From Endomicrobiales bacterium (lineage in GTDB: Bacteria; Elusimicrobiota; Endomicrobiia; Endomicrobiales; CAWCFT01), in assembly GCA_963794945.1 (NCBI GenBank), contig CAWCFT010000003.1:1-64000 (forward strand): DNA of 64,000 nucleotides, written 5' to 3'. Positions 33,128 to 57,600 of this stretch are shown piece after piece (the stretch's first letter is position 1; each line of letters opens with the position of its first letter). Below the pieces are notes generated by a model. That model saw nothing but the letters and a program-made list of their open reading frames with translations. It made no database searches and had not been told where the DNA came from. A program made the position numbers and the translations under genes.

Positions 33128-33159
33128 TGTATCGCAGGAACTATAATTAACGGAAATAA

Positions 33160-34060: not shown

Positions 34061-34102
34061 TATTTTCATAGATAAATAAATCACTAACCAGGAGCTCTCC
34101 CA

Positions 34103-34474
34103 ATGGCAAAGATCCTAATTGTTGACGATTCAAAATTCATGCGCCTTACATTGAAGAACGTGCTTGAAAAGCAGTTTAACGGCCTGCACACAGTAGTTGG
34201 TGAAGCCAGTACGGCTCAAGAGGCGGTAGAAAAATTCCTCCAGCTCAGACCTGACCTGATAACGATGGACATAATAATGCCAGAAGAATCCGGCCTTGAG
34301 GCAGTAAAAAAAATAGTCGCGCACAACCCAAACGCTAAGATAATCATGGTTTCCGCAATGGGTCAGGAGAAGATCGTTGAAGAAGCGATAGCTTTAGGCG
34401 CGAAGTCGTTCGTGGTTAAACCGGTGAAGACCGACGACCTGATAAAAACTGTCGAGAAAGTGCTGGGAGCCTGA
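34103..34474 (+). CDS. cheY: Single-domain response regulator CheY
   Basis: ILIVDDSKFMR, MDIIMP, MVSAMGQ, VKP (Firmicutes/Thermotoga/archaeal-type CheY). Confidence 0.93.
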   Translation: MAKILIVDDSKFMRLTLKNVLEKQFNGLHTVVGEASTAQEAVEKFLQLRPDLITMDIIMPEESGLEAVKKIVAHNPNAKIIMVSAMGQEKIVEEAIALGAKSFVVKPVKTDDLIKTVEKVLGA

Positions 34475-34479
34475 CATTT

Positions 34480-36093: not shown

Positions 36094-36140
36094 TGTAAGC
36101 AGCAGGCTAAGCGTTAACGGTTGATAACAGGGCAAATATT

Positions 36141-37937: not shown

Positions 37938-37969
37938 GTGCGGGAAAACATATTCTCGCCAGGTTATAA

Positions 37970-38737
37970 ATGATGATAAAGCGTGTATTGCTTGTTGACG
38001 ATGATGAAGGTGTTCTGGCTCTTCTCTCGGCTACATTGGAAAGAGCGGGTTACGGCACATCCGGGGTGGAGAACGGGAAGCAGGCCCTAAACAAGCTTAG
38101 TGAAGAATTTTTTCCGGTCATAATTTCGGATATCATGATGCCGGATATGGATGGCTTGACGTTACTTAAACGGGTCAAAGAAATAAATCCTGACATTCAG
38201 GTAATAATGGTAACCGCACATGCGACCGTAGATGTTGCGATTACGGCACTGAGAAATTCGGCCACAAGCTTTTTAAAAAAGCCGTTCGATCCGGACGACC
38301 TGGTTTCGCAGACAGGGCAGGCATTTGAAAAATACAGGCTTCTTGAAGATAATAGAAAACTTATAGCTGAGCTCAGGTACGCAAAAGAATATAATGAGAA
38401 GATAATAGAGAACCTTGTGTATACGTTGATCGTTATCGATGAACAAGGTAAAATAGTGAAGATAAACAGGGCGCTGGAAGATATGCTTGGCTACTCGCAA
38501 AAAGATGTAGCCGGCGCGCCTCTCTCAAAGATATTTGCGGATGAACTCAAGAATACAAGCTGGGAAGAACTCGCTAAAGAAAAAAAGCTTGAAGACTTTC
38601 CGGTTGAATTCATTGCCAGAGACGGAAACAAGATAAAAGCTCTATTCACAGGCACTATAATAAAGGGACCTGATGGAAATGTGGCGGGTTTTATCGGGAC
38701 CACAAAAAACATCAAAGATAAGGCAGACTTAAAATGA
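37970..38737 (+). CDS. Response regulator with C-terminal PAS domain and no output domain
   Basis: REC (LLVDDD, SDIMMP, KKP), coiled coil, PAS (IDEQGKIVKINRA..MLGYS). Confidence 0.88.
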   Translation: MMIKRVLLVDDDEGVLALLSATLERAGYGTSGVENGKQALNKLSEEFFPVIISDIMMPDMDGLTLLKRVKEINPDIQVIMVTAHATVDVAITALRNSATSFLKKPFDPDDLVSQTGQAFEKYRLLEDNRKLIAELRYAKEYNEKIIENLVYTLIVIDEQGKIVKINRALEDMLGYSQKDVAGAPLSKIFADELKNTSWEELAKEKKLEDFPVEFIARDGNKIKALFTGTIIKGPDGNVAGFIGTTKNIKDKADLK

Positions 38738-40960
38738 ACGATACAATATTCTCGCTTGATATTGGAACAAGGAAGATCGGGATATTCGCTACCAGGCACT
38801 ACGATGATTATGCTGAGGTCCTGGTCAACAAGATCGTAGAACATAAGAGCAGGGCTGTCCGCGCGGGGCAGATCCATGATATTGATAAGGTAGCTGCGCT
38901 GGTTTCGGAGATAAAGGCAGTTGTTGAAAAAGAGAGTGGTCTTGAAGTTAAAAAAGTTGCGACGGCCATCGCGGGCAGGAATCTTAAATCAATGAGAGCA
39001 GTTGGTGAAATCAAATTTGACGCGTCGCGTGAGATAACTGAAAGCGAGCTGCGCCAGGTTGAGCTCTCTGCGATCCAGGATGCCATCAACCGTTCGCAGG
39101 ATGAAATAGACGATTACCTTTTTGTCGGGTATACAGTCGTTTCCTGGCAGCTTGACGGGGAAGACATGACAAACCCGTTGAACCATTATGCGAACAGTCT
39201 GCGGACCAATATCATTACCACTTTTCTTCCCAAAAAGGTGTTAGAAAGTCTTTTTGCGGTGATAAAAAAAGCAGGCCTTGAGATATCGTATCTTACGCTT
39301 GAACCCATAGCCGCGGCCGAGGCCGTGCTTCCCGCGGAAATGAGGCATATACCGCTCGTTTTGGTAGACATCGGAGCCGGTACGTCTGACATCGCTATTG
39401 TCTCAAGGGGAAGCATTCAGTCTTTCGGCATGATACCTTCGGCTGGCGATTTCATGACTGAATATATCTGCGGTGAGATGCTGGTAGATTTTATCGAAGC
39501 GGAAAGGATAAAACGTGAGTTTGGCAGTGATACCGGCGCCGAATCTGACGATACCCGGACCATCAAGTATAAAGACATATTTTCCAGAGAATACGAAAAA
39601 AGCTTTAAAGAGATACGCGAACTTACGGCTCCTGCGGTTAAAGAACTCTCTGAAAAGATCGCTTCTGAAATAAAGACCCTGGTGTCCAGCCCCGACGTTG
39701 CGTTAAAGAATTATGCGGTCGTGCTTGTGGGAGGTGGAAGCCTTACGTATGGGCTCGTGTCTCGCCTGGCTGCCACACTAGGCATCCCTGAAAACCGCGT
39801 GGGCCTGCGTTCGCCGGCCATGGTTAACAGGTTCATACTTAATCTTCAACTAATAAAAGACCTACAGCTTAACGAGGCAGGCAGTTACAGCCTCAATAAT
39901 GTATTTGGGCCGCAAACGGCTGTACTGCTGGGGGTTTCGTGCCTATCAGCAAAAATGCCAGCCGCGGCACTAATTCATGTGACGATAAACGACAAAAAAT
40001 CTGAAATAATAAATTTTAAGGAAGGCGGATTAACAGTCATTTCGGCGCTTGTAGCTGAAGGTATCAACAGGCAAAAGATCACCGGCAGGGTCGGTCTTGC
40101 AAAGATATTCTCCTTGAATGGAGTTCAAAGGGTCATTAAAGGGAAACTTCCGGAGCCGGCCAGGATAATAGTTAACGGTGAGCCAGCCGGAATAAATACC
40201 CTGCTTAAAGAAGGCGACAGGATAGAGTTTTTCCAGGCCTCAGACGGCAATGACGCCCGCGTGAGGGTCGCTGATATTCTGCCCCCGCCGGAAACATTTT
40301 TATTTAATCAAAAGCTTTTAAGCTTCCCGGTCAAAGTTACTATAAACGGACAGAGTGCAGTACTAGAAGAAGAAATCCCCGACAACGCGAAGATCGAGAT
40401 CGTAAATGATTATTCGTTATCATCCGCTCTCGTTGTGGCGGGCGTAGCGCCAGAGAACCTTATGGAGCAGACCGTCTCATTTGATGTTCTGGGGCAAAAG
40501 ATTGAAAAAAAGGTCAGGAACTGCATTTTGAAGGTCAATGGGAAAGAGTTTGTTGGCCCGAGTGACATCATTAACGCCACTATCAGCCCATGCGACGGTA
40601 TAATATGTGAAAATATCAGAACCGGCGATAAGAGCTGGAGAACTTGTTGCGGTACCGGGCAAGGGAAGGGACCTCAGGATAAAAATTAACACCGAAGAAT
40701 TTATTTTCCCTGGATCGCACGGAAAAATATTGTTGAACGGCAGAGAAGTTTCGGAAGAGACCGAAGTCAACGACGGGGATATTTTGCGTACTATGTCAGG
40801 CCGCGACGCGGAGGCGGTGCTAGTAGATATTTTTCGCTATATATCACTTGAACCGCGCGACACAGCAGGCAAACGCCTTAAGTTGCTGGTAAACCAGCAG
40901 GAAGCGAATTTCACGACGCCGTTGAGTCATGATGCGGATGTTAAGATCAGTTTTGAGTGA
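38734..40960 (+). CDS. FtsA/PilM-like actin-fold ATPase with C-terminal ThiS/ubiquitin-like repeats (frameshift near 40620)
   Basis: LDIGTRKI, LEPIAA, VDIGAGTSD and VGGGS actin motifs; repeated (I/V)NG...L..GD.I beta-grasp units that continue into ORF 40607-40960. Confidence 0.85.
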
Positions 40961-40968
40961 GGGTTTAA

Positions 40969-41589
40969 ATGAAAAACATGACATTTTCAGAGATCCAGGT
41001 AGACGCGATAAAAGAAATATGCAGCATAGCCTCCGGGACCGCTGCGGGTGCTCTCTCGCAGATCCTCAACAAAAAGATAACCATGAAAGTGCCTGAGATA
41101 AAGATAGTGCCTATAGAGGTCGCTGTCGACACAATGGGCGACCCGAATTCAATAGTGGCCGGCGTATATTCAAGGCTTATGGGAGACTTTAGTGGCGGGC
41201 TTCTGCTTACTTTTCCAAGAGAAGACGTGATAATGCTGGTCGATAAACTCACAGGCAGTGAAGTCAAGGTTCATAGCTTAAGCGAATTGGACGTTTCCGC
41301 TGTGTCGGAAGTGGGTAACATTATTGCCGCTTCTTTTGTCTCGGCTATAGCGAAAATTATCAATAAAACTATTCTTATCTCGGTTCCAAAGCTAGCTTTT
41401 GACATGATGGGCGCGATAGTTGATTTCATACTTATAGAGCTCGCGGAAAACGCCGAGCAGGCCTTAATAATGAAAATTGAATTCGAAGATGTGCCAAGGA
41501 CTATATCAGGGCATTTTTTCATTATTCCGAACCCGGGCTCACTCGAGATGCTCCTAAACAGCATAGAATTATACCATCCGGGCAAATGA
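40969..41589 (+). CDS. cheC: CheY-P phosphatase CheC, copy 1
   Basis: DAIKEICSIASGTAAGALS and SAVSEVGNI repeats; only the second has an intact ExxN. Confidence 0.9.
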   Translation: MKNMTFSEIQVDAIKEICSIASGTAAGALSQILNKKITMKVPEIKIVPIEVAVDTMGDPNSIVAGVYSRLMGDFSGGLLLTFPREDVIMLVDKLTGSEVKVHSLSELDVSAVSEVGNIIAASFVSAIAKIINKTILISVPKLAFDMMGAIVDFILIELAENAEQALIMKIEFEDVPRTISGHFFIIPNPGSLEMLLNSIELYHPGK

Positions 41590-41596
41590 TTCATGG

Positions 41597-42232
41597 ATGA
41601 AAGCAGTTTACTATAGGATGGACGATATTATGAGAGAAGATATTCGAACAGACGCGTTGCTCGAAGTTACAAATGTTGGCGCCGGGCAGGCCGCGACCGC
41701 GCTTTCCAGGATGCTCCAGAAAAAAGTCTTGATAACGGTGCCGAGCCTGAAGCTCATGCCGATAGAAGAAATACCAAAAGCTCTGGCAGGCACCGAGTCT
41801 ACGGTAATAGGCATATACTTTTATATGGTGGGCGATCTTACAGGCCGCATCCTGCTCGTGTTTGAAAAGGACAGCGGCCACAGGTTGGCGTCTCTGATCA
41901 CCGGAGATGAAAATTTGAAGGCCGGCCAACTAGACGAGATGGGCAGGTCGGCAATGATGGAGATGGGTAACATTATAACCAATTCATATCTTAACGGCCT
42001 AGCGGGACTTATGGATATAACACTCTTCCCGTCCGTGCCGTATCTCGCCGAAGATGTTCTGGGTGCGGTGATCGATACACTGCTGATTGAGATATCGATG
42101 GTTGCTGATAAAGCCTTGCTCATTGATACGCAGATATCGATAGAGAATGAAAACCTTAACGGAAGCTTTCTGGTGTTCCCTGATGAAGAATTCATGAACA
42201 AGATATATGCTAAACTTGGCCTGTTAAGATAA
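41597..42232 (+). CDS. cheC: CheY-P phosphatase CheC, copy 2
   Basis: DALLEVTNVGAGQAATALS and SAMMEMGNI. Confidence 0.92.
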   Translation: MKAVYYRMDDIMREDIRTDALLEVTNVGAGQAATALSRMLQKKVLITVPSLKLMPIEEIPKALAGTESTVIGIYFYMVGDLTGRILLVFEKDSGHRLASLITGDENLKAGQLDEMGRSAMMEMGNIITNSYLNGLAGLMDITLFPSVPYLAEDVLGAVIDTLLIEISMVADKALLIDTQISIENENLNGSFLVFPDEEFMNKIYAKLGLLR

Positions 42233-42264
42233 TAATCTGTTAAAAAGGAGTGTATTTAAATAAT

Positions 42265-42747
42265 ATGGAAACAGTTTGCGTAAATATAGCGGAATATGCG
42301 GTCATCAAAGCTCCGGCGACGATAGAGACTAGGAGCCTTGGCTCGTGTGTGGGCATAATACTGTACGATATTGTATCAAAGATCGGAGGCCTCGCTCACA
42401 TAATGTTGCCAGATTCCAAAAAAGTGAGCATTGGCGGTAAGCCGGGCAAATATGCCGATATCGCCATAGAACTAATGCTAAATAAGATGGTAGAGATGGG
42501 GGCGAACAGGAACAATGTCATCGCAAAAATGGCCGGTGGCGCTTGTATGTTCACAGGAACCAATATTTCCGATTTTATGAATATTGGGTTAAGAAATGTA
42601 ACCGCGATAAAAAGTATCCTTAAAGAATTCAAGATCAACCTTATAGCTGAAGATTGCGGGGGTTCTCATGGACGGACGATAGAATTCCATTCCGATACGG
42701 GAAAACTTGTAATAAAATCTTCTATGGCACCGACAAAAGAGATTTAA
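42265..42747 (+). CDS. cheD: Chemoreceptor glutamine deamidase CheD
   Basis: LGSCVG, GGLAHIMLP, KYAD, AKMAGGA, IGLRN, EDCGGSHGRT. Confidence 0.96.
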   Translation: METVCVNIAEYAVIKAPATIETRSLGSCVGIILYDIVSKIGGLAHIMLPDSKKVSIGGKPGKYADIAIELMLNKMVEMGANRNNVIAKMAGGACMFTGTNISDFMNIGLRNVTAIKSILKEFKINLIAEDCGGSHGRTIEFHSDTGKLVIKSSMAPTKEI

Positions 42748-42756
42748 AGAGGCCTT

Positions 42757-43122
42757 ATGGCGAAGATACTTATAGCAGATGATTCGGACATGATGAGAAA
42801 GATAGCGAAAATGACCGTAGCGAAGGGCGGCTACGAAGTTGTTGAGGCTGCCAACGGCGCGCAGGCTGTTGAGGTCGCGGTTAAGGAGTTGCCGCAGCTG
42901 ATATTGCTTGATGCAGAAATGCCGGAAATGGATGGCTGGGAAGCAAGCAAGGCCATAAAAGCAAATCCCATTACAGCGAGTATACCTATTCTTATCTGTA
43001 CGGGGCATGATCTGAGCGACGAGGCCGAACTTTTAAAGGAATCCGGCGTGAGCGGGTATATCACTAAACCTTACAATCCATCGCAAATGATAACGAAGAT
43101 CAAGGAAGTGCTCGGACAATAA
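42757..43122 (+). CDS. Single-domain response regulator (second CheY-like)
   Basis: ILIADDS, LLDAEMP, CTG, TKP. Confidence 0.9.
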   Translation: MAKILIADDSDMMRKIAKMTVAKGGYEVVEAANGAQAVEVAVKELPQLILLDAEMPEMDGWEASKAIKANPITASIPILICTGHDLSDEAELLKESGVSGYITKPYNPSQMITKIKEVLGQ

Positions 43123-43165: not shown

Positions 43166-44386
43166 ATGGTAAAAATTCTGATCATGGACGACGAGCCGGG
43201 CTTAAGAAATATAGTGTACAACATTGTAAAACCGCTCGGTCATCCGGTTTTTACTTCCGAAGACGGTCATCAAGCTCTGGAGGTTGCGAAAAGGGAGAAT
43301 CCTGATATCGCCTTGCTTGATGTCAGAGTGCCGGATATGGACGGGCTGGAAGTACTGGCTGAGCTCAGAAAGATCAATCCGAACATAAAAGCTATAATGC
43401 TCTCTGGTTTTGGGGACGTGGAAAGCGCAGTTTTTGCTCTCAAACAGGGGGCGTTCGATTATATAAGCAAACCATTTAAAGTGGATGACGTAATTAAAAC
43501 GGTCAATAAGGCAATAAGCGCTATGGGTCAAGGTCAAGCAGCAGCTCCAGCAGCAAGTTCTGCTGGTCAGCAGCCAGCACAGGCACCTGCTATGGCCCGC
43601 GACAAGGCCACGAAACCGGAAACTGCCGCAACAAAGCTACAGAACAAGCCGCCCATTGGTCTTATAGCTGGCGGGGCACTGGTCCTCGCAGTGGCGGGCA
43701 TTTTTCTTTTCAAAGGTATTCTGACTAAATCACATGCCGAAAGCTATACGATACCCTACTCAAATCCTATAGGTATGTGCTGGATAAAACCATACCTTTG
43801 GGTAAGCGATTGGGTCGTGGGCAATATCTACCAACATAACAATGACGCGACACTTTCGATAGCTTCTGTTTATAAAACCAATAACACCCAGCCGACAGGC
43901 ATCACTTTTGATGGTGAAGCGTTGTGGACATGCAGTTCGGTAGAGAAAAGGATATACAAACATAGAATGGATAAAAATCTGTCGGTATCAGAGATATTCT
44001 CCACCCCGAACAGCAGCCCGGCTGGATTATACTTTGATGGAGCCAACCTCTGGGTACTAGATACCAACGCGGCGAAGATCTATAAGCATAAAATGGACGA
44101 AACTCTTTCTATTGTGAGCGTTTTCGACAGCCCAGCTGTCAGCCCTTGCGGTATGTTCCGGGACGGCGAGTATTTCTATATAGGCGACTATAAAACTTCA
44201 CGAATTTACAAGGTGTCGGTAAATGATTTTTCCGTAAGAGAAGTGTATTCAATGCCGGATTTTGAGGAAGGTAAGAATAAGCTGGCCAGCATCACATGGG
44301 ACGGTTCCAGCATCTGGGCTACGGCTGATGGTGTTGGAAAGATATTTAAAATACCGTTTAAATCTTTAAAAACAATCAAATTTTAG
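43166..44386 (+). CDS. REC-linker-TM-periplasmic beta-propeller protein
   Basis: Intact REC (MDDE, LLDVRVP, SKP), Ala/Pro/Gln linker, TM (IGLIAGGALVLAVAGIFLF), repeated P.G..FDG..LW..D....IYKH blades. Confidence 0.85.
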   Translation: MVKILIMDDEPGLRNIVYNIVKPLGHPVFTSEDGHQALEVAKRENPDIALLDVRVPDMDGLEVLAELRKINPNIKAIMLSGFGDVESAVFALKQGAFDYISKPFKVDDVIKTVNKAISAMGQGQAAAPAASSAGQQPAQAPAMARDKATKPETAATKLQNKPPIGLIAGGALVLAVAGIFLFKGILTKSHAESYTIPYSNPIGMCWIKPYLWVSDWVVGNIYQHNNDATLSIASVYKTNNTQPTGITFDGEALWTCSSVEKRIYKHRMDKNLSVSEIFSTPNSSPAGLYFDGANLWVLDTNAAKIYKHKMDETLSIVSVFDSPAVSPCGMFRDGEYFYIGDYKTSRIYKVSVNDFSVREVYSMPDFEEGKNKLASITWDGSSIWATADGVGKIFKIPFKSLKTIKF

Positions 44387-45059: not shown

Positions 45060-45073
45060 GCGAGGGTAAAAAG

Positions 45074-45460
45074 ATGGAGAAAAAAATGGTTTTGAAAATG
45101 ATTCTCACGGCACTGGCTCTTCTGGCTGGCTGGACGGTTCTCCCGTCTGCCGGTTCTGAGCAGGCTTACAGTATCGTTACAAATTTTCCGAATCCATTTG
45201 ATAGCCGGGAAGGGTCAACGACCATCTGTTACACACTTTCCTCCGAATCGGAAGTACAGGCAAAGATATACGATCTCCTTGGAAATCTTGTCAGGGAGTA
45301 TCCGTCCAAGATCGAAACAGCCGGGATAAAAACGGTTGTTTGGGATGGGACGGACCAGTATGGCGCCAAAGTTTCCAAAGGCGGCTATATTCTGACGGTT
45401 GAGATTAAAAGCGGTTCCGAAAGCATAATTGCTACCCGCAAGATTGGCGTGATCCACTAA
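45074..45460 (+). CDS. Small exported protein made of a single FlgD-Ig / T9SS-CTD-like domain
   Basis: Signal peptide, then NFPNPF...T.I.Y.L...IYDLLGNLVR...VVWDGTDQYG..V..GGY. Confidence 0.85.
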   Translation: MEKKMVLKMILTALALLAGWTVLPSAGSEQAYSIVTNFPNPFDSREGSTTICYTLSSESEVQAKIYDLLGNLVREYPSKIETAGIKTVVWDGTDQYGAKVSKGGYILTVEIKSGSESIIATRKIGVIH

Positions 45461-45472: not shown

Positions 45473-47104
45473 ATGGAAAGGTCGATGAAAAACACGAATC
45501 TTAACAAGACCATAAGCAAAATCGCATTGATTTTGCTGACGGGATTCGTATTTTTATCGATAAATGTCATCAGTCCGGAGCGCATATTCGCTGACGCTAC
45601 CGGCGGTCAACCTGGACAATTCCTTGCGTGGGGCGCGGGCGCAAGGTCGCTTGCGATGGGCAGTGCCTTTTATTCCGTTTCGGATGACGCCTCTGCTACT
45701 TACTGGAACCCGGCGGGACTTGCCCAGATGGACCGCAAAGAATTAATGGCTCTGCATGTCAGTCTGTTTGCCGACACGAACTATGATTTTATTTCTTATG
45801 TACACCCGACCCCAAAGTACGGCGTGTTCGGGTTGAACCTGACAAGGCTTGATTCGGGCGGCTTTGAAAAGGTCAATATCACCTACGATTCGACTCAAAC
45901 CGATATAATAAATATTCAGAACATGGGCACTTTTGATGATGTGCAAACCGCGTTAACCGGCGCTTACGGCAAGAAGATCAGCGAGCATCTTTCGATAGGA
46001 GTATCAGGCAAATACATAACGCACACATTAGACACGTCAACAAACGGTTTCCTGACTTTCGATGTTGCCACAATGGTGCAGGGGGTCAGTAAAGAGCTTC
46101 CCAAGCTTAAGCTTGGGTTCGGCATACAGAACCTTATGGGCACTAAATTCGGCGATACGGATGACGTGTTGCCTATAATATTTCGCGCTGGAGTAAGTCA
46201 CCCCTTCTTAAGAGATAAACTTTTAGTAGCTTTCGATATAGATAAAAACATGAATACCAGCATGGGCTGGCACATAGGAACCGAATACTGGTTGTTGAAT
46301 TTCGCGGCCCTCCGCATCGGTTTCCAGGGCGGCAATGGTCTGACAGAAACTGACGCTGGGTTTGGAGTAAAATACAAGGATTATGGCATAGATTATGCAT
46401 TCGGTATACAAGACCTGGGGCTTTCAAGCAGGATATCGGGTACCTGGAGATTCGGGCCTTCCATCTCTGAGAACCGCGAAATCCTAGTTCGCCGCTACAT
46501 GCAGGAAGGCATGGAGGCGTACCGTCAAGGCAACTTCCTGCTTGCGTTCAACAGGCTTGAGGCAAGTCTTGACATAGACCCCGCGAACAAGGATGTTCAA
46601 AAGATGCATAGCAGGATGCAGCTTATAGTAGGATACCTCCAAACAGCTGCGGGTGAGAGCGAAGAAGCGGTATCTATCAGAAAGGGCGTTGCCGGATATG
46701 TTGAAAGCGATGAGAAGGGTGCTGTAAACGCTTTCAGATATGCTTATTACAAGAACCCAAATAATACAAAACTGCTTGCTTTATTAAACAGAATCGAAAA
46801 AGATGCCGGTATAACGACAACCGAGGCCTACAAAGAAGATGTTGTCGGCTTTACAATCATAGACCAGAAAGTTTACGACGCACGCCAGTCAATAGTAGAA
46901 GGTAAATATGATCAGGCGCTTATAAAGTGCCAAGAAATACTGAACCTTGAGCCCGCGAACCTTACAGCTATGGAAGTCATGGGTTCAGCGTTCTTCATGA
47001 TGGACCAGCCGGATAAGGCGAAACAGGTGTGGATGAAGGTTATGGAACTTGATCCGACAAACAAGGTCGTGCCCGAGTTCATTAATCAGCTCAAAGAGAA
47101 ATAA
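45473..47104 (+). CDS. PorV/PorQ (UPF0164)-like outer-membrane beta-barrel with C-terminal TPRs
   Basis: Signal peptide; FLAWGAGARSLAMGSAF..VSDDASATYWNPAGLA family motif; alternating beta strands ending IDYAF; helical TPR tail. Confidence 0.85.
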   Translation: MERSMKNTNLNKTISKIALILLTGFVFLSINVISPERIFADATGGQPGQFLAWGAGARSLAMGSAFYSVSDDASATYWNPAGLAQMDRKELMALHVSLFADTNYDFISYVHPTPKYGVFGLNLTRLDSGGFEKVNITYDSTQTDIINIQNMGTFDDVQTALTGAYGKKISEHLSIGVSGKYITHTLDTSTNGFLTFDVATMVQGVSKELPKLKLGFGIQNLMGTKFGDTDDVLPIIFRAGVSHPFLRDKLLVAFDIDKNMNTSMGWHIGTEYWLLNFAALRIGFQGGNGLTETDAGFGVKYKDYGIDYAFGIQDLGLSSRISGTWRFGPSISENREILVRRYMQEGMEAYRQGNFLLAFNRLEASLDIDPANKDVQKMHSRMQLIVGYLQTAAGESEEAVSIRKGVAGYVESDEKGAVNAFRYAYYKNPNNTKLLALLNRIEKDAGITTTEAYKEDVVGFTIIDQKVYDARQSIVEGKYDQALIKCQEILNLEPANLTAMEVMGSAFFMMDQPDKAKQVWMKVMELDPTNKVVPEFINQLKEK

Positions 47105-47162: not shown

Positions 47163-48969
47163 ATGGAAAAAATTATTAAACGAATTCTAATTGTTTTTGC
47201 GGCTGTTTTTCTAACAGTAGCGCTTCGCTTTCCGCTTGGCTGGTCTCAGAGCACGCAGGATGATTCCCAGCAAAACAACCTGATGGACAAAGAGGCGAAA
47301 TTCGAGAAAGATAAAGCAGAATACCTGCAGTCGTTCGTGCTCGACAAGATACTTGGCCCCGGCAAGGCTATAGTTATAGTAGATGTACAAATGGGCACAG
47401 AGACAAAGGTTACAAAACAGGAAGCAAACCAGAAGAAATCAGAAAGAAAGAAAAGGCTGGGCGAAGTAGAATACCTACTTCCCGGAGTTCCGAACCCTAA
47501 ATCGGTAGCGCAGGAGTCAGCACCAGGCGAGTCTAAAGAAGAAACAGGCCAGGCGCAGGAAACAAAGGTGCAGGTGTTGACTGTTATAAAGAAACTTATA
47601 GTGACCGTTTTGTACGATGAAAAGATCACCCAGGATAAGCTTGATATAGTTAAAGACGCGATCATGTCTTCTATGAAGATAGACGTAAAAAGAGGAGACA
47701 AAATAGAATTTAAAAAAACAAAATTCACGCAGGGTTTTGTTGACGAACTGATGAAACCTCAGATACTCGTGCCTATCATTTTCGCTATGATGCTATTGTT
47801 TTTCCTGTTCGGCCCGGTAGCCAGTTTCCTGAGGTCTTTTGTCAAGACAATGCGCGAAAAAGGCGGAACAGAGGTCACCGTGGACTCGAAATTCGAGGGC
47901 GCTGGAGATGAAGAAGGAAAGGGCGGTGGCGGCGGCAACGGAGCCCTCACGGCATCAGAACTCGAGGCGCTGGAGAAAGAGAAAAAGAAATATCATCCTT
48001 TTGATTACATCAATGATGAAAACCTCAAGCGCATGGTTTACCTTATAAGAAGAGAGCCTCCACAGAGCGTGGCCCTTGTCGTGAGTTATCTTAAGCCCGA
48101 ATACGTCAGAGAGGTCTTGAACGCACTGACCCCTGAAATGCAGGCAAAAGTCGCTTTGGAAATGGCCACTATACGTTCCATGGATGAAGAGCAGGTCAAA
48201 AAAATAGACGACCACATCAAAGAAAAAATAGAGTTCCTAATTGGCGGTATATCGCACCTTCTTGAGGTTATCGACCAGGTAGACAAAGTTACACAGAACA
48301 ATATTTTTGATTATTTAAGGAATGAAAAACCAGAGCTCTATGATAAGGTAAGGAAATTCGTTCTTATGTGGGAAGATATACCGAATTTCCCGGATCAGGC
48401 GATGCAGGTGATAATAAGGGAGCTGAAAACACAAGATATGGCAAAGGCTCTGCGTAACGCAAGCTCAGAACGTGCTTAATAAGTATTTTGCCAATATGTC
48501 GGCCAATGCCGCGGCTATATTAAAAGAGGAAATGGAATACGGAAGGCCGCTTACGGACGCAGAGATTGAAGAGGAAAGAAAGCGAATAATAAATTTGATA
48601 AAGCAGCTTGAGAAAGACGGTCGCGTTTTCATAAGAGAAAAACCGAAGACCGACGTTCTTGAAGGAATAGAAGACAACGGCGGCGAACCCGTGCCTGAAG
48701 AGCAGGGCACGGCGAGTTACGAAGAGTATTATAACGCAGGAGCCCAATATTATGAGTTGTCGCAATTTGAAGAGGCGTTATCGTATTTTGAGTACTGCGC
48801 GCAGTTGGATCCTAACCAGCCGGCAATCTATCAGTATCTTGGAAATACATATTATGCGCTCGGCCGCAGCGCCGAAGCGATAGCGTCATTTGAAAAGGCA
48901 TTGGAACTCAATCCGGAGGATCAGGGTCTTCGGGCGTGGCTCTCAGAGCAAAAAAACGCCATAAGTTGA
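47163..48969 (+). CDS. FliF C-terminal (RBM3)-TM-FliG middle/C-terminal-TPR fusion protein (frameshift near 48470)
   Basis: LDKILGPGKAIVIVDV and IKKLIVTVLYD...KRGDKIEF (FliF ring motif); TM; PFDYI...REPPQSVALVVSYL (FliG EHPQ), GG, LMWEDI (MFxFEDL), ALRNA, NMSANAAAILKEEM (torque helix); C-terminal TPRs. Confidence 0.85.
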
Positions 48970-49081: not shown

Positions 49082-52000
49082 ATGGGCTTGTTCAAGAAAG
49101 ATAAACTAAAAGAAGAACAAAAACTCTCTGAGGCAAAATTGCCGAAAAGCCTAGAAGAAAAAAAGTCTATTTTGCCTGAAAGTGAAGACCTCTCACACTC
49201 AAGACAACGCGCTGAGGAACAGATAAGGGCGCTTGAAGAAAAAATTCAGAACCAGAGAGACAGCTGGGGCGCCAAAATGAAGGAGAAGGAAGAAGAAAGG
49301 ATATCTCTAGGCGCTCAGCTTGAGATGCTTGTACGTAAGGTTCAGAACGAGCGCGAGAAAAAAGAAGGTGAGTTGAACCTCCTTGAACAGCAGGTACAAA
49401 GAGACCTGGTTGAAGCCCAAAAATCTCTTGAAAATGAGATCAAAACATGGAATGAACGCCTTAGCGTTAAAGATAAAGAGATCGAACAAACAAAAGAGGA
49501 AGCGGAGTTGATCGAAACCAGAAAGAGGATAGAGAGCGATCAGAATTCAAGAGCTTTGAAATCCCAGTTGGAACAGATCGATCAAAAATATAAGACTCTT
49601 GAAAGAAAAATGCTCGAAGAGCAGAATACGTGGATAACTAGGATCAAAGGCAAAGAAGAAGAAATTTTAGGCGTAAAAACACAGGTCTCGCTTAAAGAAT
49701 CACAGATATCTATTGAAAACGAGAAGGATCAGACGCTAAAAAAAGAAAAAGAAACGGCATGGCAAGGCCAGGTTCAGGAATTAGAAACAAAGCTTAAGAC
49801 GCAGGAGCTTGAGTTCGAAAAAGAATACAAGAGGAAGCAGGATGAATTATCGGCCTTAAAAACAGCTATCGAGGCCAGGCTCAGCTCCATAACCATGGAA
49901 GCTGAGAAAAGGGAAAAAGAAACTCTGAGCCTTATTGCCAGGACCGAAGACAGGATAAAGATAATAAACGGGCATATTACCGAAGAGAATAAACATTGGC
50001 AAACTGTGCTTAAAGCCCGGGATGAGGAATTCAATAAGCTTAAAGTCGAACTTATGCTCCGCGAAAGCCAGGAAAAATCCGAAAGAGAGAAAAAGTTTCA
50101 GGAACTCGGAGAAGCTGAATCGCTGGCCAATAGAAAAATTAAGGAAATACGGCAGAAAATTAATGATGAAAAAGAAAACTGGAAAATTAGCCTCGATGCA
50201 AAAGAAGAAGAACTGAAGCTGCTGAAGATACAATCAGAACTTAAGCTCAAAGAAGTTCAGGAAATGTGGGAAAGCAGGAAGACAAGAGCTCAGGAAGAGA
50301 AATCGATCCTTGAGAAAAAACTCGTAGCGATCAGGGACAATTTTGAGCAGGAAAAGAATAACCTGAAAAAAGAACTAGATATTAAGACCGCGGATATAGA
50401 ACAGTATGAGCAAAAATGGCAGCAGAGGCAGAATGAGATCGCTGCTGCGAACACAAAAGAGCTGGAAGAGCTCAAGGCTCGCAAAGAAATACTTGAGGTG
50501 GAACTAGAGGAGCTTGAGGAAAACCTTAAAAATGAGAAGGCGAAGTGGGCAGGCCTGATACTTCAGAAAGAACAGGAAGCCAATGTCGTAAAAAATGAGC
50601 TAAAAGGCCGAGAATCTTCAGCTTTGAGGGATCTTGAGATCCTTGATATGCAGTTAAATAAGGAACAGCAACCGCTTCTCGATAAAGTCCGGGATATGGA
50701 AAAGCGTTTTGAAGACCACAAAAAACTTGTCAAGGCTGAACTCGGGCGCCGGGAAGCCGCGAAAACGGCACTTGAGGAACAATTCCGTGTAAGAGAAGAA
50801 AATTTGCTTCTGCGCCATAACAAGCAATCTGAAAAAATTAAAGTCCTTGAACAGGAAAATCTTTTAAAGATCTCAGAACTGAAAAAAAGCATGGAGGAGC
50901 AGTCTCAGTCCGCTCTTAAGAGGATAAATGAACTTAAGTCGGAAGAAAACATGGTCAAAGAAAAGCTCTCTTCGCAAGATAAGACAATAGCGGAAGAAAA
51001 GGCCAAACTTGAGGAACAGTATAAACACCGTAACAATATTTTGTTAGAATCGATACAAAATCTTGAGATAGAAAATGAGCGGCAAAGAGGACAACTGCAG
51101 GCCGAATTGGAAAATATGACAAAGGCTGCGGAAGAGATTAAAACAGAACTTGAGAAAAAAGAAAATCAGCTTTTGGCAGACCTGAAGCTTAAAGAAAAAG
51201 AGCAGGCATCGATAAAGACGTCTTCGGAAGCTGAGGTCGCAAAACTAGCCGAGGCGCTGACCAAAAACAATGAAGAATATGAGCGTGAGATAAAAGCTCA
51301 CAGGGAATCAATAGAGGCGCTGGAAAAGTCGTTCAAGAGCAAAGATGCCCAATTTCAAGCTGAAATAAAGAACATAAAAATAGAATGGGATAACAAGCTT
51401 CAACCCTTAAATGACGAACGCAAACAGCAGGAAGCGCGTCTGGCATTGTCAAAAAAAGAAGCCGAAGACAGAGCGCTCGCTATAGAGAATGCCATAAAAA
51501 TGTCCAGGGAGCAATACAAAATACAGGAAGAGAACGCCGCCAGAAATATATTGCAGGAAAATTTAAGGATTCAAGCGATAAAAGAAAAGCTTGCAAAAGA
51601 GGCTGCCGCTCTGAATCTGGAGATTGATACGCAATCCAGGCAGGCAAAGGAAATAATTGAAAAGCTTGCGCTTAGAGAGAAGGCCCTCGAAAACAATATT
51701 GCCGTTGAAGACCAGAGGCTGCACGCAGAAAGGGTCAGGGTAACCCAATTCTACGAAAATCAGCAAAAACAGCTCAACGAAACAATTAACAAGCTTGAAA
51801 AGGATTATTCGGATTTCGTAAAAAGCGTTGATGCGGATATAAAACTTAAAAATGCTGAACTGGTTCGGGAAGAAAAGAGAGTGAGAGATCTTGAGATGGA
51901 AAATCTCAAGGATATGAAACAAAAAGAGCAGGAGCTTTCGTTATTAGAAAATGAAAACAAAAAAGAACTCGCCGCGTTGTTTGCAGAGTACAATAGGATT

Positions 52001-54653
52001 AAAAATGAAAAAAGCGCTGAGATTAAATCAAAAGAAGAAACAATGGTGTCGCTTGTAAAATCACTGCAGGAGAACAAGGTCATTTATGATAGAGAGCTCG
52101 AGGCGCTCAAATCCAGTCTTGCCGCGGAACTGGAGCCGGTATCAAAGCGCAGGCAGGAGTTAAAAACGGATTTTGAACGGGCCAGAAAAGAGGCTGAAGA
52201 GAAGCTTGTCGCGGCCGCTAAAAGAATAGAATCTCTTAAAGCCGAGCAGGTAGCTTTGACCGCGGAATTTGAACGAAGACACGCTGAGTCTTCCGCGAAG
52301 ATGTCCTCCGCTAAAGCTGATTTTGACGGCCAGGTCAAAACACTGCTCGAACAGAAAGCTGGATATGAAAAAGAGGCAGCGGAAACTATAGCCGCCAAGG
52401 AATCTGAGATAAGCGCGCTAGAAAGCGAGGCCAACCAAAAGAAACTCGCTTTCGAAAAGCAAAAAGGGGGTTTGCAGTCACAGGGGCACTCGCTGATAGA
52501 AAAGGTTAAAGAAGAGATCTCGTCACTGGAAAAGGAAATGTCGCGGCTGGAAAAAGAATACCCGCAGGTCCTGCTGGAGCGTGAGAAAGAAATATCGCTG
52601 CTGACCTCCAGAATAGAGCAAAGATCTATAGAGAACAAGGACAAGTTGGACCTCGCAGAAAAAAGTACTGAAAATTATCAAAAGCGAGCTGAACGCCGTA
52701 TCACACAGCTTAAGGGGCAAATAAAGGAAGCGCAGGAGCACCACAAAAAAGAACTGGAATCGATCGAGGCCAGGCTCTCCAATATTCACTCGGATATAGC
52801 AAAGAAGGAGAATTCATACCAGGAAGAATTCTTAAGAGAAGGAAAAATATTTGCCGAGCAAAAATACGTTCTCGAGAAACAGAAAGCAGAATTTGGCGAA
52901 AAACTCAGGGACCTGCAGTTGTATTCAAGGGAGCAGTTGAGGCAAAAAGAGAAAGAAATACTTATCCTCCAGAGTGATCTGGCTGAAAAAGAAAAAGCCT
53001 GGGAAGAAAGTTGGAAGCAAAAGGAGCAGGAGCTGGCGATAGAAAAAAATTCGCTTTTGCAAGAGCTCGAGAGTCTTGACGCAAAGCTGAAAGACGAAGA
53101 GGAAACGGTCAAAAAAAGAATAAATGAAAAAGAACGTGAAATACAGTCTCTGGAAAATACATACTATACAAAACTTGAAAACATGTCGGCCGAGATGTCT
53201 TCAAAAAAGAAAGTGTGGGAAGACACTAATTTAGGCCTTAAGAACCAGGCTGAACAGCTAAAAAATAGCCTGGCCTCGCTAGAAAACAGTTGGGAAGAAA
53301 CAAAGGCACAAAAAGAGAAAGAGTTGTCCGTTCTTAAATCCAATCTTGAATTTTGGGAATTACGTTCAAAGAACGAAGAAGAAAAAAGACTGGCCGCGTG
53401 GGAAGAAGAAAGATCCGGCCTTGAGAGCAAAGTTAAAGACGCAGAAAATAAGCTGGCCGCGCTGAAAAAAGAATATTCTGCGAAGAACGAGGAGAAGGAA
53501 GCCGCGTTAAATGCCTTAAGGGTCCAGGGTGAAGAGAACGAAAAGGAAAAACTGAATGAACTAAAAAAGATTGAGACAGACTATACAGCGGCACAGAACT
53601 CACTTGCGCTGGAGATATCAGCCTGGGAAAAGAAACTCAAAGAAGAAACTCTCAGGACGGAGAAGGAAAAGAAAGAGATAGAGCGTGAGCTTGAAAAGCT
53701 GAAACTTGAAAGCGCCCTAAAAGAGAACGCAGCAATGTTCTGAGCAGCAAAAGAACGAAAGGAAATGGCGTAAACTCCAGAGAGACCTTGAAGAACAGCT
53801 GATAGACTATGAACGCCAATTTGCCGACGAAAAAGAGAGCTTAAAGAGTAAGCTTAACATGAAGGCAGAAGAGATCAGTACGCTTAAAGTAAGAATGTCG
53901 CTTAGAGAAGAAAGACGCCAGTCAGAGATAAAGCACCGCCAGGAAGAGACACAAAAGATAATATCCGGCCTGGAATCAGAGCTCAAAGTGCTAGAAGATA
54001 AATACGGTAATAATATGGGCGCCTTAAATACAAGCCTGGGAAAATCAAGAAAAGAACTTGAAATGTTGAAGCAAGAAGCTATGGAAAAAGAAGAGAAGTG
54101 GGAAAAAGAAAACGAAAGCAGGGAAAATGCCGCGTCGAGCGCATATGCTTTGATAAATAAAGATCTTGAGGATGTGGAAAACGAATTGAGAAAGGAGAGC
54201 GAAAGGCTTGAGAGGATGCTGGATATAAAGCAGAAACAAATCGCCAATTTGACAGCACAGATGCAGTCTAAAGAAGCCGGCCTTATAACTGAAAGGGATT
54301 ATTCTCAGATAATACTGCAGGGGTTGCAGAAAAAAGCCGGCGATCTTCAGGGAGTACTGAACAAGCTCCAAAGGAATGGCAAAGAAAACGAAAAAGAAGG
54401 TCTTGGGCGCGTTTTCGAAGAAGCTATCGAGCATTATAACAGTGGTAATTACGAGAAAGCGAAAGAAAAACTGGGGCAAATATTGAAATCAAATCCGGAG
54501 TTCGCCGGGGCTTATCAATATCTTGCGCTATGCAGCTGGAACCTGGGAGAAAAAGAAGAGTCTTTGAAACTTGCCAGGAAAGCGTTCGAGCTTGAACCCC
54601 ACAATGAAGAATTGAAACTCTGGATAGAATATATAGAAAAAGAAAGTAAATAA
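49082..54653 (+). CDS. Giant coiled-coil protein (~1855 aa) with C-terminal TPRs (frameshift near 53738)
   Basis: E/K/L/Q-rich with almost no Pro or Gly; ORFs 49082-53743 and 53859-54653 are contiguous in composition; TPR pair at the C-terminus; RBS GGAGG. Confidence 0.85.
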
Positions 54654-54678: not shown

Positions 54679-57600
54679 ATGGCTGACGACAAAAAACCAA
54701 AAATTCCGCCTCTTCCGCCGCAGAGGCCGCCAATGCCGAAACCGGCGGGTGGAGCGACTATACCTAAAGCGGGCCTGCCACCCCAGGCGCCAAGGCCGCA
54801 AGGGGTGCCGGTTAAACCTGTGATGCCTGCGATGAAACCTCCGGTAGCCGAACAAGCTCCTGCGAAGTACGCGCAGGGAAATCTTTCTCCAGCATCTAGT
54901 GAAGTCGACGAGATAAGAAAACAAATGGAATCTCAGATCATGGGCCTGCAGTATCAGCTGCAAGAAGAAAAAGAAAAACTCCTTCTTCAGACAGTCCGCG
55001 CGAAAGAAGAAGAAGCTATGGCGGCGAAAGTCGAAGAATCTCTTAAAGATATACAAGACAGGTTGCGCCGCGAGAAACGCGAGCAGGAACTGCAGGACTC
55101 CTTAGCGAAGTCCGAGCTCCAGGTAAAGGAACTCGAGCAAAGGGTCAGTGCGGAACGCCAAACGTGGGTTGAAACTTTGAAATCGCAGGTCGGTCAGAGG
55201 GAGAGCCAGGATAAGGAGCTCGAGCGCGATTTTGAGTTGAAGCTTAAGGAACTTGAGCGGCGCTGGCACGAAGAGAAGCTTGGCTGGTCTCAGGCTCTAA
55301 GGGGTAAAGACGAAGAGGTGGCTAGGCTCAAAAGGGAAGCTGAAGCGGCCATTACCGCTGAAAAAGGCAATTCCGAAAAACGCATCTCACAGCTGGAAAC
55401 AGAAAGGGACGCTTTCAGAAGGGAGATCAAGGAGATCGTTGACGTACGTGACCAGGAACGCGCGATGACCGCCTCAAAACTCGAAGCTCGCGACAAAGAG
55501 TTCCTATCGCTCAAGGCTCAGCAGGCGATGGTAGTTACCCAGTTGCGCCAGGGAAAAGAAAAAGAGGACCAACTTAGGGCGCTTCTGGAAAGAATGCGCG
55601 CCGAGAAAAACGGCCTCATCACCCAGCTGGACGCGAAAGACAAAGAATACTTTATGCTAAAAACGCAGTTCGCTCTCTATCAGAACACGGGCAAAAACTG
55701 AGCAGGAAAAGCTGATGAAAGAGATGCTGCTCTATAAAGAACAAATGCAGAAAGACCGGGATAACTGGGAAGTGAATATAAAAACTAAAGAGAACGAGCT
55801 GAGGATAATTTCCGATAACGCTAAGGATCGCGAGAACTCTTTAAAACAGTTGCTTGAGAAAAAAGAGATTGAACATACGTCATTTGTCAGGGAATACGAG
55901 GACAAGCTGAGGGCTCAGGAAGCTGCGTTCAGTCAGGTTGTCGAGAAGAAAGAAAGCGAAGCGTCTGCAGCGGTCAGGAAGGCTGAAGAGAAGATCATTG
56001 CCCGGGAGATCGAGTTTAAACAAGCGCTTGAAAAAAAGGACCTCGAGAAGGTTTTGCAAATAAGAGAGATGGAAGAGAAGATGCGTTCCCAGGAAGCTGT
56101 TTTCAGGCAGGCCGCTGAAAAGAAAGAAATTGAATTATCGGCTTTTGCCAGAACAGGCTGAGGAAAAACTTAAAGCCAGAGAGATTGAGCTGAGGCACTT
56201 GATAGAACAGAAGGATGCTGATATAAAAGAAGCGGTTAAAGACAATGTGGTAAAGATAACGGCCCTCGAGCAAGCTCACGGTCAGCAGATCGCTCAGAAA
56301 GACCATGAATTCAGAAATCAGCAATTGCAGTGGATCGAACGTATTCAGGTGAAAGAAAAAGAGATCAACGCGGCCGCAGAAAAGGAGAACACGTTAAAGG
56401 TGAGGATCGCACAGGTAGAACAAGTTGTACACCAGCTGGAAGAAAAACTTAAAAATGAGACCGAGTCACTTATCGCTGAGCGGGCCCACAATGAACAGAA
56501 CGAGAGGGAGTTCAATGCCGCCATCGTGCGAAAAGAAAATGAGTTCAAAGAAGCAGTTTCGAAGCAGGAAGAAAAATTACGCGCCATTGGAAAAGAGCTC
56601 GCCGAGTCTCTTGCCCACTCGCAGATACTTAACCTCGAAATAGCCAAAAGAGAGCAGCAACTCATTCAATTCAAGTCTGATATAGAACGGAGCGCACAGT
56701 CGGCTGCCTTGCTAGCAAAAGAGAACGAGAGCAAATCAATAGAGCTAACAGAAGCCTTGTCTCGCGCTCAAGGCCTAAGCCTTGAAGTGGCGATGAAAGG
56801 TCAGCAGCTGATTCAGTTCAAAACGGAGCTCGATAGGAGCGAAAAAACAATTGAGGCGCTCAAGAGCGAAAACGAAATAAAAATAAAGGAATTAGCCGAT
56901 GCCGCGGCGCGTGCTCAGGGCCTCGGCCTAGAACTCGCCAAGAAAGAGCATGAGCTCGTTCAGGCAAAGATCGATATAGATAGGGCTTCACAGGCGTTCC
57001 TCGTCATGGAGAAGGAAAAAGAAGGCAGGATGAAAGAGGTGTCCGAGCTTATCGAAAAGAGCAGAGAACTCAGCTCTCGCCTTATTGAACAAGAACGTAA
57101 CAGTAGAGAGCTCTCAGAGCGCATAAGAGATAAGTCGGAAGAGGCCGCGCGTGTGACAGAAATTTTAGCGCGGACGGAGAATGAGCTTAAGGTGGCACGC
57201 TCGGGCTTCCTAACAGAACTTTCAAAAAAAGAGAATGAAATAATCTCTTTCAGGGAGAAAGACAGCGACTCAAGGGTCAAGATATCATCCTTTGAGCAAA
57301 GGATTAGAGAACTTGAGGAAAAACTTGAAAATGGGGAACAGGCCATTAAGGGAAAAGATGATATGCTGCGCGATAAGGAGACAGAACTTCTTATACAGCA
57401 GGAAAAGACGGAGCAGGCAAAAAAGGAGCTCAATGATAGACTTTTAAAAGAGCAGGAAAAATTCACACTCGCGGTCGATCAACTTAAAAAAGAGTCGGGT
57501 GATAAGTTATTACAGGAAGAATCTAAATTGAAGGCGCAAACGGATCTCTTAAAAGAAGAGGCCAGGAATGCCGTAAATTTGAAAGAGCTTGAAATAAGGG

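Follow-up and report, generated by a model that had tools for sequence, protein, structure and literature searches.

FliG is, to our knowledge, known only from flagella, and other motors of the MotAB family (Ton, Tol, Agl, GldLM and Zorya) work without it. In the flagellar motor, FliF assembles into a ring of about 33 or 34 subunits, the N-terminal domain of FliG (FliG-N) binds the tail of FliF, and the RBM1 and RBM2 domains of FliF (YscJ_FliF, the SctJ-homology region) house the export gate. A natural FliF-FliG fusion is found in Chlamydiaceae; according to the accessible text of its description (PMC4768692, Bergeron 2016), it has about 330 aa with RBM2, an unassigned RBM-like segment and only a FliG-M-like region, and it is proposed to meet the injectisome in bacteria in which FlhA, FliI and other such proteins are present. 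Engineered fusions of Salmonella and Vibrio FliF and FliG, as presented in the accessible parts of PMC11481574 and 10.1101/2023.02.06.527414, are covalent 1:1 and still form MS-rings. Most free-living members of the phylum Elusimicrobiota have no flagellar structural genes and nevertheless possess homologues of motAB, flbD and fliG whose role is unclear, as stated in the accessible part of a study on magnetotactic Elusimicrobiota (10.1101/2022.07.08.499144), which proposes twitching for the non-flagellated members. Here we describe a gene of this phylum that joins parts of FliF and FliG. It lies in a stretch of 64,000 nucleotides from an Endomicrobiales bacterium (assembly GCA_963794945.1, contig CAWCFT010000003.1, positions 1 to 64,000 of the forward strand), called the window below, where positions 47163-48969 encode one protein of about 600 aa. 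We cautiously favour the reading that this protein is the subunit of a non-flagellar rotor driven by flagellar-type MotAB, the rotor-stator core of an envelope machine specific to Elusimicrobiota.

The window system shares with the canonical flagellar rotor and stator (FliF, FliG, MotA5B2) the RBM3/collar fold, FliG M and C, flagellar-type MotA/MotB genes and the pair of a basic residue at MotA-90 and an acidic residue at FliG-288. It differs in being one polypeptide with an added TPR tail and neither RBM1/2 nor FliG-N, and in the absence from the genome, by profile searches, of FliM/N, export gate, rod, hook and filament. The equivalents of FliG residues 281 and 297 are never basic, the EHPQR motif is degenerate, and the gene is flanked by those for a PorV-type barrel, for giant surface proteins and for coiled-coil proteins. 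With the chlamydial protein it has in common that it is a natural FliF-FliG fusion with a shortened periplasmic region in a non-flagellated bacterium; judged by the accessible description of that protein, the window fusion instead has RBM3 rather than RBM2, both FliG M and C, TPRs and MotAB partners, and no genes of a type III secretion system (T3SS). The engineered proteins, by their accessible descriptions, join full-length FliF to full-length FliG, whereas the window fusion is natural and has neither RBM1/2 nor FliG-N; the Vibrio fusion, solved as chain 8z4d, is one of the window family's best structural matches. In the literature covered, which left subscription journals outside, we came across no account of the fused architecture, of the cluster or of its link to PorV, and the main texts, supplements apart, of PMC12505986 and PMC13277936 do not mention Elusimicrobiota in their accessible parts.

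From the N-terminus, the protein consists of a signal or anchor peptide, the FliF RBM3/collar, one transmembrane (TM) helix, a Gly-rich linker, FliG M, FliG C and two TPRs. It is encoded by two overlapping open reading frames (ORFs) on the + strand, 47049/47163-48479 and 48472-48969, which meet at a single extra base within FliG_C. YscJ_FliF_C in Pfam matched ORF 47163-48479 with its whole profile (positions 1-147, aa 60-188; 27.3 bits, cut-off 23.8), followed by FliG_M (aa 292-357; 56.2 bits) and, over aa 384-436, by positions 2-54 of the FliG_C profile, its first half. The other half (positions 57-107) is in ORF 48472-48969, ahead of two stretches matching TPR_1/TPR_2, and the two halves scored 41.8 and 41.6 bits. 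YscJ_FliF (RBM1/2, PF01514) matched neither the fusion protein nor any other part of the genome, and the periplasmic part is only about 170 aa long. The sole FliG_N match (29 bits, aa 300-355) is superposed on FliG_M and is therefore not a separate N domain; no FliG-N is present in the fusion protein, whose alignment to Thermotoga maritima FliG begins at the M domain. The probable start is ATG 47163, which has GAGGGA 7 nt upstream and agrees with the N-termini of relatives. The TTG at 47049 given in the ORF list would overlap the upstream gene and is unlikely to be the start.

An alignment of 45 sequences of the periplasmic part gave an AlphaFold monomer model (predicted local distance difference test, pLDDT, 67) with the layout helix, long strand, unmodelled insert (residues 60-105), long strand, helix and strand. 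The insert carries an invariant LPGVPxPKSV motif. When the model was compared with the PDB by Foldseek, all 18 matches at E <= 0.001 were FliF S-ring/RBM3 chains (5e-7 to 2e-5), and SpoIIIAG came next. VIA-align, which is independent of Foldseek, gave Z scores of 13.2 for Vibrio FliF residues 255-452, 12.2 for Salmonella FliF 223-438 and 11.7 for a third FliF, and 8.0 for both SpoIIIAG and EscJ. SpoIIIAG, the ring protein of sporulation, is likewise RBM3-like and non-flagellar and has an insertion of the beta-collar type, but it is the clearly weaker match (Foldseek 5.6e-3 against 5e-7, Z 8.0 against 13.2) and has no FliG or stator. By this model, the periplasmic domain is RBM3 plus collar, nearest to FliF itself.

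We compared a profile of 26 family sequences with solved FliG structures. It matched T. maritima FliG-MC (1lkv) with an E value of 5e-58 over chain residues 3-223, from the start of M to the end of C, and we regard the cytoplasmic part as a bona fide FliG-MC. The closest intact relative, P0002 (601 aa, 89% identical to the window fusion protein), scored 135.1 bits with the NCBIfam fliG equivalog TIGR00207, below its cut-off of 226.7. The torque helix reads NMSANAAAILKEEMEYGRPLT in the window and NMSKRAAALLKDELEYMGPVR in T. maritima. Residues were numbered from the T. maritima alignment and from Salmonella FliG 8umd_B, in which profile 297-495 corresponds to residues 121-325; by these, profile positions 451, 458, 459 and 467 are residues 281, 288, 289 and 297 in Escherichia coli numbering. 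We take the canonical charged residues of this region to be E. coli K264, R281, D288, D289 and R297. Across 73 family sequences, no basic residue occurs at the equivalents of 281 (G in 66, N in 6, S in 1) or 297 (T in 60, S in 5, A in 4, others in 4). Position 288 is E in all 73, and position 289 is E in 33 and S in 32; K or R is found at 287 in 71 sequences, at 294 in 46 and at 264 in 40. The altered torque helix is, by these alignments, a signature of the whole family and not a quirk of the window gene. The EHPQR motif, which we take to be the FliM-binding motif, retains E/D and P and never has H, and the equivalent of R160 is E in 59 of 74 sequences. Such a degenerate site fits the absence of FliM and FliN. 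The initial annotation, made from the DNA, had proposed RBM3 only, one TM helix, FliG M and C without FliG-N, and TPRs, with a FliF-FliG junction that does not depend on correcting the frameshift, and a torque helix that keeps the acidic pair and has lost the equivalents of R281 and R297. This was borne out: all three Pfam families were matched, the FliF-TM-FliG junction lies inside one uninterrupted ORF, the window has N and T at the two former arginines and E/E at the acidic pair, and the alignment of homologues makes the loss family-wide.

A homologue search returned 140 matches at E <= 0.001, mostly of about 600 aa among those listed; where the source was named, it was always an Elusimicrobia or Endomicrobia metagenome-assembled genome (MAG). 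We kept 80 related loci, 78 with the fusion and two with ordinary FliG from other phyla. Elusimicrobiota is the label of 75 of the 78 fusion loci, the exceptions being L016 ('Ignavibacteria'), L027 and L077 (both 'bacterium'), and the fusion family is confined to this phylum. It is conserved at 33-89% identity across classes, with 1-3 paralogs per genome and two or three in many of the genomes. The window's genome has three (contigs 3, 4 and 16), and the torque helices of its paralogs differ further, with Asp at the equivalent of 281. Shorter paralogs of about 480-580 aa without the TPR tail adjoin a second MotA type that is about 35% identical to the first. We then searched an even sample of 201 Elusimicrobiota genomes for the RBM3-like domain, FHIPEP and MotA. 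The RBM3-like domain was present in 67 genomes (57 of the 170 high-quality ones); it is missing from two large families (0/63 and 0/58) and occurs in most of the others. FHIPEP/FlhA was found in five genomes, only one of which also has the RBM3-like domain, leaving 66 of the 67 family-bearing genomes without FlhA. In the window's own genome (85.9% complete), profile searches did not find FHIPEP, YscJ_FliF, Flg_bb_rod, Flagellin_N or FliMN_C. A maximum-likelihood tree of FliG-MC was built from 39 rows, drawn from 29 of the 78 loci and from own and other sequences. It split 33 fused sequences (long and short) from six canonical FliGs, four of them from flagellated Elusimicrobiota, with support of 100/99, so that the fused lineage did not branch off recently from the flagellar FliG that the phylum has today. 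With only two outgroups from other phyla, a midpoint root and long-branched short paralogs, the tree bears on neither the direction nor the date of origin.

The stator genes are of the flagellar type. The window's genome has four MotA_ExbB genes, which belong to two ExbB-ExbD-TonB sets and two MotA/MotB pairs. The MotA on contig 4 matched solved flagellar MotA/PomA structures with E values from 1e-47 (C. sporogenes MotA) to 7e-22, is adjoined by a MotB with plug and OmpA domains, and shares 63-75% identity with the MotA that, in other lineages, is encoded directly 3' of the fusion gene. Its KAR...LE motif is kept, with what we take, by spacing, to be the equivalents of R90 and E98. Over the 78 fusion loci, to which all neighbourhood counts refer, MotA lies downstream of the fusion in 41 and MotB in 35. 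MotA at E <= 1e-30 was present in 74 of the 201 genomes, including 66 of the 67 that bear the family; it was found in eight of the 134 genomes that do not, and four of these eight are flagellated. It lies within 15 kb of 62 of 113 RBM3-like matches (58 on the same strand), and at least one adjacent fusion-MotA pair exists in 43 of the 67 genomes. By these matches, the stator of the family would be ordinary flagellar-type MotAB. The initial annotation had described a ring without a T3SS gate that has a different stator or does not rotate. Its first half agrees with the pattern of FHIPEP/FlhA, both in the window's genome and in the family-bearing genomes; its second half is not supported, since a search for accompanying MotA/ExbB-like genes found that flagellar-type MotA/MotB travels with the family.

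The charge pairs at the stator-rotor interface are R90/D288-D289 and E98/R281 in the accessible part of PMC12505986. In the MotA linked to the fusion, the equivalent of R90 is K or R in 39 of 39 sequences, and that of E98 is Q in 26 and E in 13. Hence the pair kept on FliG is also kept on MotA, and the pair lost on FliG is often lost on MotA, as expected of a cognate, working interface. A family-wide torque-helix change that is matched in the linked MotA would amount to a natural experiment on charge pairs essential for torque.

Several other genes were noted around the two MotA/MotB pairs. The conserved pair on contig 4 (C4:251121-257568) stands directly after genes for pilin, PilC, PilT and PilB, and beside it is a 994-aa protein whose C-terminus matches a FlgD_ig-like tail. 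The second pair (C12:70000-89999, L100) heads a cluster without a FliF/FliG fusion, which has an extra OmpA-like protein, coiled-coil proteins, three receivers, a GAF kinase, a PorV-TPR-like barrel, a TPR protein, a HEAT-repeat protein and a Kelch/fn3 surface protein carrying a CTD-like tail. It may encode a related machine that has another rotor.

Table 1. Features of the window around the fusion gene (eq, equivalent residue; T9SS, type IX secretion system; CTD, C-terminal domain)
Feature	Position	Strand	Remarks
Chemotaxis operon	28698..43122	+	Directly upstream of cluster; only CheA found in genome
Response-regulator receiver, TM helix, NHL-like propeller	43166..44386	+	44 bp after chemotaxis operon
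Small secreted protein made up of a FlgD_ig / T9SS-CTD-like domain	45071..45460	+	
PorV/PorQ-family 14-strand outer-membrane barrel (predicted) with ~210-aa C-terminal TPR domain	45473..47104	+	Conserved upstream neighbour
Fusion gene, part 5' of extra base	47163..48471	+	Pfam, ORF list, relatives
N-terminal hydrophobic signal peptide or first TM anchor	47163..47243	+	Hydrophobic segment also in L012 ortholog
Periplasmic FliF RBM3/beta-collar-like domain (predicted)	47244..47750	+	Pfam, model, structure searches
TM helix ILVPIIFAMMLLFFLFGPVASF	47763..47828	+	aa ~201-222
Gly-rich cytoplasmic linker, in place of FliF tail and FliG-N	47880..47950	+	aa ~240-262
FliG middle domain	48036..48233	+	EHPQR site degenerate (EPPQ in window protein)
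FliG C-terminal domain, broken by extra base	48312..48630	+	
Extra-base site inside FliG_C, +1 shift needed	48469..48471	+	Comparison with intact relatives
Fusion gene, part 3' of extra base: second half of FliG_C and TPR tail	48472..48969	+	
Torque helix NMSANAAAILKEEMEYGRPLT	48493..48555	+	R281eq = N; D288/D289eq = E, E; R297eq = T
Two cytoplasmic TPR repeats	48721..48942	+	Pfam
Cytoplasmic (predicted) ~1800-aa coiled-coil protein ending in TPRs	49082..54653	+	
Conserved coiled-coil protein 'U', Pro-rich N-terminus	54679..58676	+	Ortholog between fusion gene and MotA in other lineages

A PorV-TPR barrel is encoded upstream of the fusion in 63 of the 78 loci. The barrel of the window scored 140.3 bits with NF033709 (PorV_fam, NCBIfam; cut-off 90), and its model (pLDDT 85) shows 14 strands and, after them, TPR-like helices over about 210 aa. 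Its best Foldseek matches were the type IX secretion system (T9SS) PorV chains of Flavobacterium johnsoniae, 8gl6_F (3e-12) and 6h3i_F (7e-11), followed by FadL. Because the number of strands is even, we infer that the TPR domain is in the periplasm. In 38 loci there is a small or giant protein with a FlgD_ig tail, and the giant upstream proteins have the FlgD_ig-like domain at their extreme C-terminus, like a T9SS sorting domain. Protein U follows the fusion in 56 loci and a coiled-coil protein of about 1600-1850 aa is found in 23; neither a signal peptide nor a TM segment is present in the coiled-coil proteins, which should therefore be cytoplasmic. The T9SS and gliding apparatus of Bacteroidota, in which PorV is the shuttle and CTD proteins are the cargo, likewise combines a motor of the MotAB family with a PorV-family barrel and with giant surface proteins that end in an Ig-like domain of the sorting type, but has GldL/GldM where the window system has flagellar-type MotAB and a predicted FliG ring. 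GldM had no match in the window's genome in a search whose control also matched in no genome, and SprA gave two weak matches (58 bits, cut-off 200) on a 1767-aa ORF of contig 5. PorV/PorQ-family matches number 33 in this genome, 11 of them above the cut-off as single rows and one more when same-frame neighbours are joined, a large expansion outside Bacteroidota.

In the mechanism that we propose, the TM helix and the Gly-rich linker tie the RBM3/collar 1:1 to FliG M and C, so that FliG-N and the FliF tail are not needed. The subunits would assemble into a membrane ring without export gate, rod or FliM/FliN switch, whose cytoplasmic face displays the FliG-C torque helices, and MotA5B2-type stators would push this ring via the pair of the basic MotA-R90 equivalent and the acidic FliG-E288 equivalent. 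The periplasmic collar with its LPGVPxPKSV loop would face the periplasmic TPR domain of the adjacent PorV-type barrel; the barrel, by analogy with T9SS PorV, would bind the giant surface proteins encoded upstream by their CTD-like tails. In this way, ion-driven rotation or force would reach these proteins, for gliding, adhesin movement or their handling. In the cluster of the window lineage, the coiled-coil/TPR protein of about 1800 aa takes the place of adjacent MotAB, and two MotAB pairs are elsewhere in the genome. We infer the output of the machine, and likewise its chemotactic control. A fuller picture, which we would call possible and not probable, is a new surface-motility or surface-protein-driving organelle, in which an RBM3-TM-FliG ring turned by MotAB has no axial rod, is coupled via its collar to a PorV-TPR barrel with giant CTD-tailed adhesins and cytoplasmically to coiled-coil filaments, and is steered by CheA-CheY in the window lineage. 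If true, such an organelle would explain the flagellum-free movement of chemotactic, even magnetotactic, free-living Elusimicrobiota, and it would represent a stage of motor evolution with rotor and stator and without a secretion system.

The narrower proposal of a MotAB-driven rotor has consequences of its own. A rotor-stator core could work, or at least be kept by selection, without export gate, rod and switch complex, which bears on the origin of the flagellar motor and its minimal requirements. The natural single-chain rotor, with its 1:1 stoichiometry and no FliG-N, would also be a tractable structural subject. Finally, the fusion is a concrete candidate for the fliG and motAB genes of 'unclear' role in non-flagellated chemotactic Elusimicrobiota that are noted in the accessible part of 10.1101/2022.07.08.499144.

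A number of observations weigh against a MotAB-driven rotor or its wider setting. Unusually, none of the three fusion paralogs in the window's genome adjoins MotAB, and all 23 loci with the giant coiled-coil gene are without adjacent MotA. The co-occurrence counts are dominated by the two large families that lack both genes and are not independent. The charge-pair pattern follows clades and would not amount to proof of a cognate interface; covariation of FliG 264/289/294 with MotA 98/99/100, considered over 36 linked pairs, follows clades as well and was set aside as not being independent evidence. Two of the three canonical torque-helix arginines are missing by our alignment. The periplasmic model has a pLDDT of only 67 and leaves residues 60-105 unmodelled. 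PorV barrels are so numerous in the genome that adjacency to one tells less, and a clade of loci, among them L029, L034, L040, L049 and L053, has MotAB without an adjacent PorV barrel, showing that the barrel is not universal. The chemotaxis operon is adjacent in only two of 79 loci (the window and L012), and with a gap of about 680 bp between the receiver-propeller gene and the cluster, the linkage may be a local accident. Contigs built from soil-metagenome reads do not reach the frameshift site at 48469. Ring formation, rotation and contacts with MotA, the barrel or the coiled-coil proteins are all predicted.

The strongest competing explanation, which we find doubtful, is a static force transducer or scaffold, in which the ring is an inner-membrane platform whose FliG-C docks MotAB without continuous rotation. 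MotAB would then energise a step at the outer membrane, for instance one that releases, attaches or turns over CTD-type surface proteins at the barrel, in a manner resembling ExbBD-TonB, TolQR-TolA or T9SS GldLM. The PorV-type barrel and CTD-like-tailed proteins that flank the gene would suit this role; the ring could be kept from turning by the cytoplasmic TPRs and the huge coiled-coil proteins, no rod or bearing is present, and two torque-helix arginines are lost. However, the stator is of the flagellar MotA type, whose MotB has plug and OmpA domains, and not of the ExbB/TolQ type, FliG-C and the key charge pair are strictly kept, and no TonB-, TolA- or GldM-like shaft protein was recognised in the cluster.

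It is unlikely that the FliG-like ring and MotAB are instead an accessory of type IV pili that modulates twitching, which would be the true output of the chemotaxis operon. The conserved MotAB pair of the window's genome does lie directly beside the pilin, PilC, PilT and PilB genes, and the accessible part of 10.1101/2022.07.08.499144 proposes twitching for non-flagellated Elusimicrobiota while calling the role of motAB/fliG 'unclear'. Against this, in 41 of 78 loci it is the fusion gene, and not pilus genes, that MotAB follows, no gene of the conserved cluster was recognised as a pilus gene, and the chemotaxis operon has CheC, CheD and CheX-type genes and no ChpA/PilG-type genes.

We also asked whether the break in the fusion gene is real. 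The DNA at this point reads ..AAC GCA AGC TCA GAA C GTG CTT AAT AAG.., with the single extra base between GAA (48466-48468) and GTG (48472) in mid-FliG_C. Translation runs ..NASSE-R-A-stop and resumes at (V)LNKYFANMS, where intact relatives have ..NASSEVLNKFF... The base is present in the assembly and the site is not a homopolymer. A soil-metagenome run that contains 0.21 of the sampled words gave three contigs, 47598-47748, 47794-47944 and 48706-48959, at a depth of about 2, which leave the site uncovered. A +1 slip at GCT-TAA would yield a product of the same length; we considered such programmed frameshifting unlikely, as relatives are unshifted and many other genes of the assembly are broken, and no slippery motif is conserved. 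If real, the break would mean a fresh pseudogene, +1 read-through or two separate proteins (RBM3-TM-FliG-M with half of FliG-C, and the other half of FliG-C with the TPRs), which we hold to be very unlikely, because it would halve one compact domain. Of 77 fusion ORFs in related loci, 73 reach at least 570 aa, and DNA alignments with five related genes showed the extra base in none of them. Of the four shorter ORFs, three end at contig ends. The fourth (L050, 10001-10975) is a 346-aa FliG-MC-TPR ORF without RBM3 or TM that is not at a contig end and comes from the same MAG as L013.

The source assembly (19 contigs, 2.9 Mb, 85.9% completeness, 5.9% contamination) contains at least seven other genes that are split in the same way. 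Among them are the gene for the essential arginyl-tRNA synthetase, in overlapping ORFs at 3431-5085 (-) of the window, and that for the methyl-accepting chemotaxis protein (MCP; 31162-32616 / 32504-33127, +). The giant coiled-coil gene has one frameshift, near 53730, and gene U has two; the MotB on contig 4 and both other fusion paralogs with their adjoining barrels are split. At about one indel per several kb, any frameshift in this assembly is to be distrusted. The intact relatives and the many split genes lead us to consider the extra base in the fusion gene very probably an assembly error.

That the gene is a leftover of a lost flagellum without present function is highly improbable. The few flagellated members (5/201) show that loss has occurred within the phylum, but the gene is intact, with 33-89% identity across classes, 1-3 paralogs, invariant motifs and conserved gene order, and the fused FliG-MC stands apart from the flagellar Elusimicrobiota FliG in the tree (100/99).

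Upstream of the cluster, the chemotaxis operon encodes, in order, CheW, two SBPs (solute-binding proteins), the split MCP, CheR, CheY, CheB-HNOB and CheA, followed by a response regulator with PAS (RR-PAS), an FtsA-like ATPase, two CheC, CheD and CheY. No second CheA, CheW, CheD or CheC was found in the genome by tblastn. The same order from the chemotaxis genes to the fusion is present in the closest relative locus, L012 (fusion 74% identical), and in no other locus. The receiver-TM-propeller gene stands beside the cluster in both L012 and L013, the latter without chemotaxis genes. A sole CheA pathway next to the rotor cluster, in a genome without flagellar genes, suggests chemotactic control, on the strength of two related loci. 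We considered the CheC-like proteins as substitutes for FliM and set the idea aside: they are CheC-sized, match CheC best (135 and 163 bits; cut-off 250) and lie beside the cluster only in the window and L012. They are homologous to the FliM middle domain and have weak FliY matches in NCBIfam.

Some proteins of this region are unusual in themselves. CheB (34480-36093, +) combines a receiver and the methylesterase with a C-terminal HNOB/H-NOX haem-NO-binding domain (31.6 bits), an unusual fusion that would place gas sensing on the adaptation enzyme. The FtsA/MreB/PilM-like actin-fold ATPase (651-743 aa) between RR-PAS and CheC (38734-40689, +) is conserved in the closest relative (L012, 1769-4000). 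The propeller of the receiver-propeller protein is presumably periplasmic; a second full copy is on contig 7 (C7:55334-56534), and the cluster ends with an ORF of the propeller alone (61717-62424). Near the start of the window, positions 5308-12487 (+) encode a 1724-aa protein with many TPRs, radical-SAM and SPASM, followed by a 665-aa TPR protein, and this stretch has a very strong GC skew (0.5-0.6) and AT skew.

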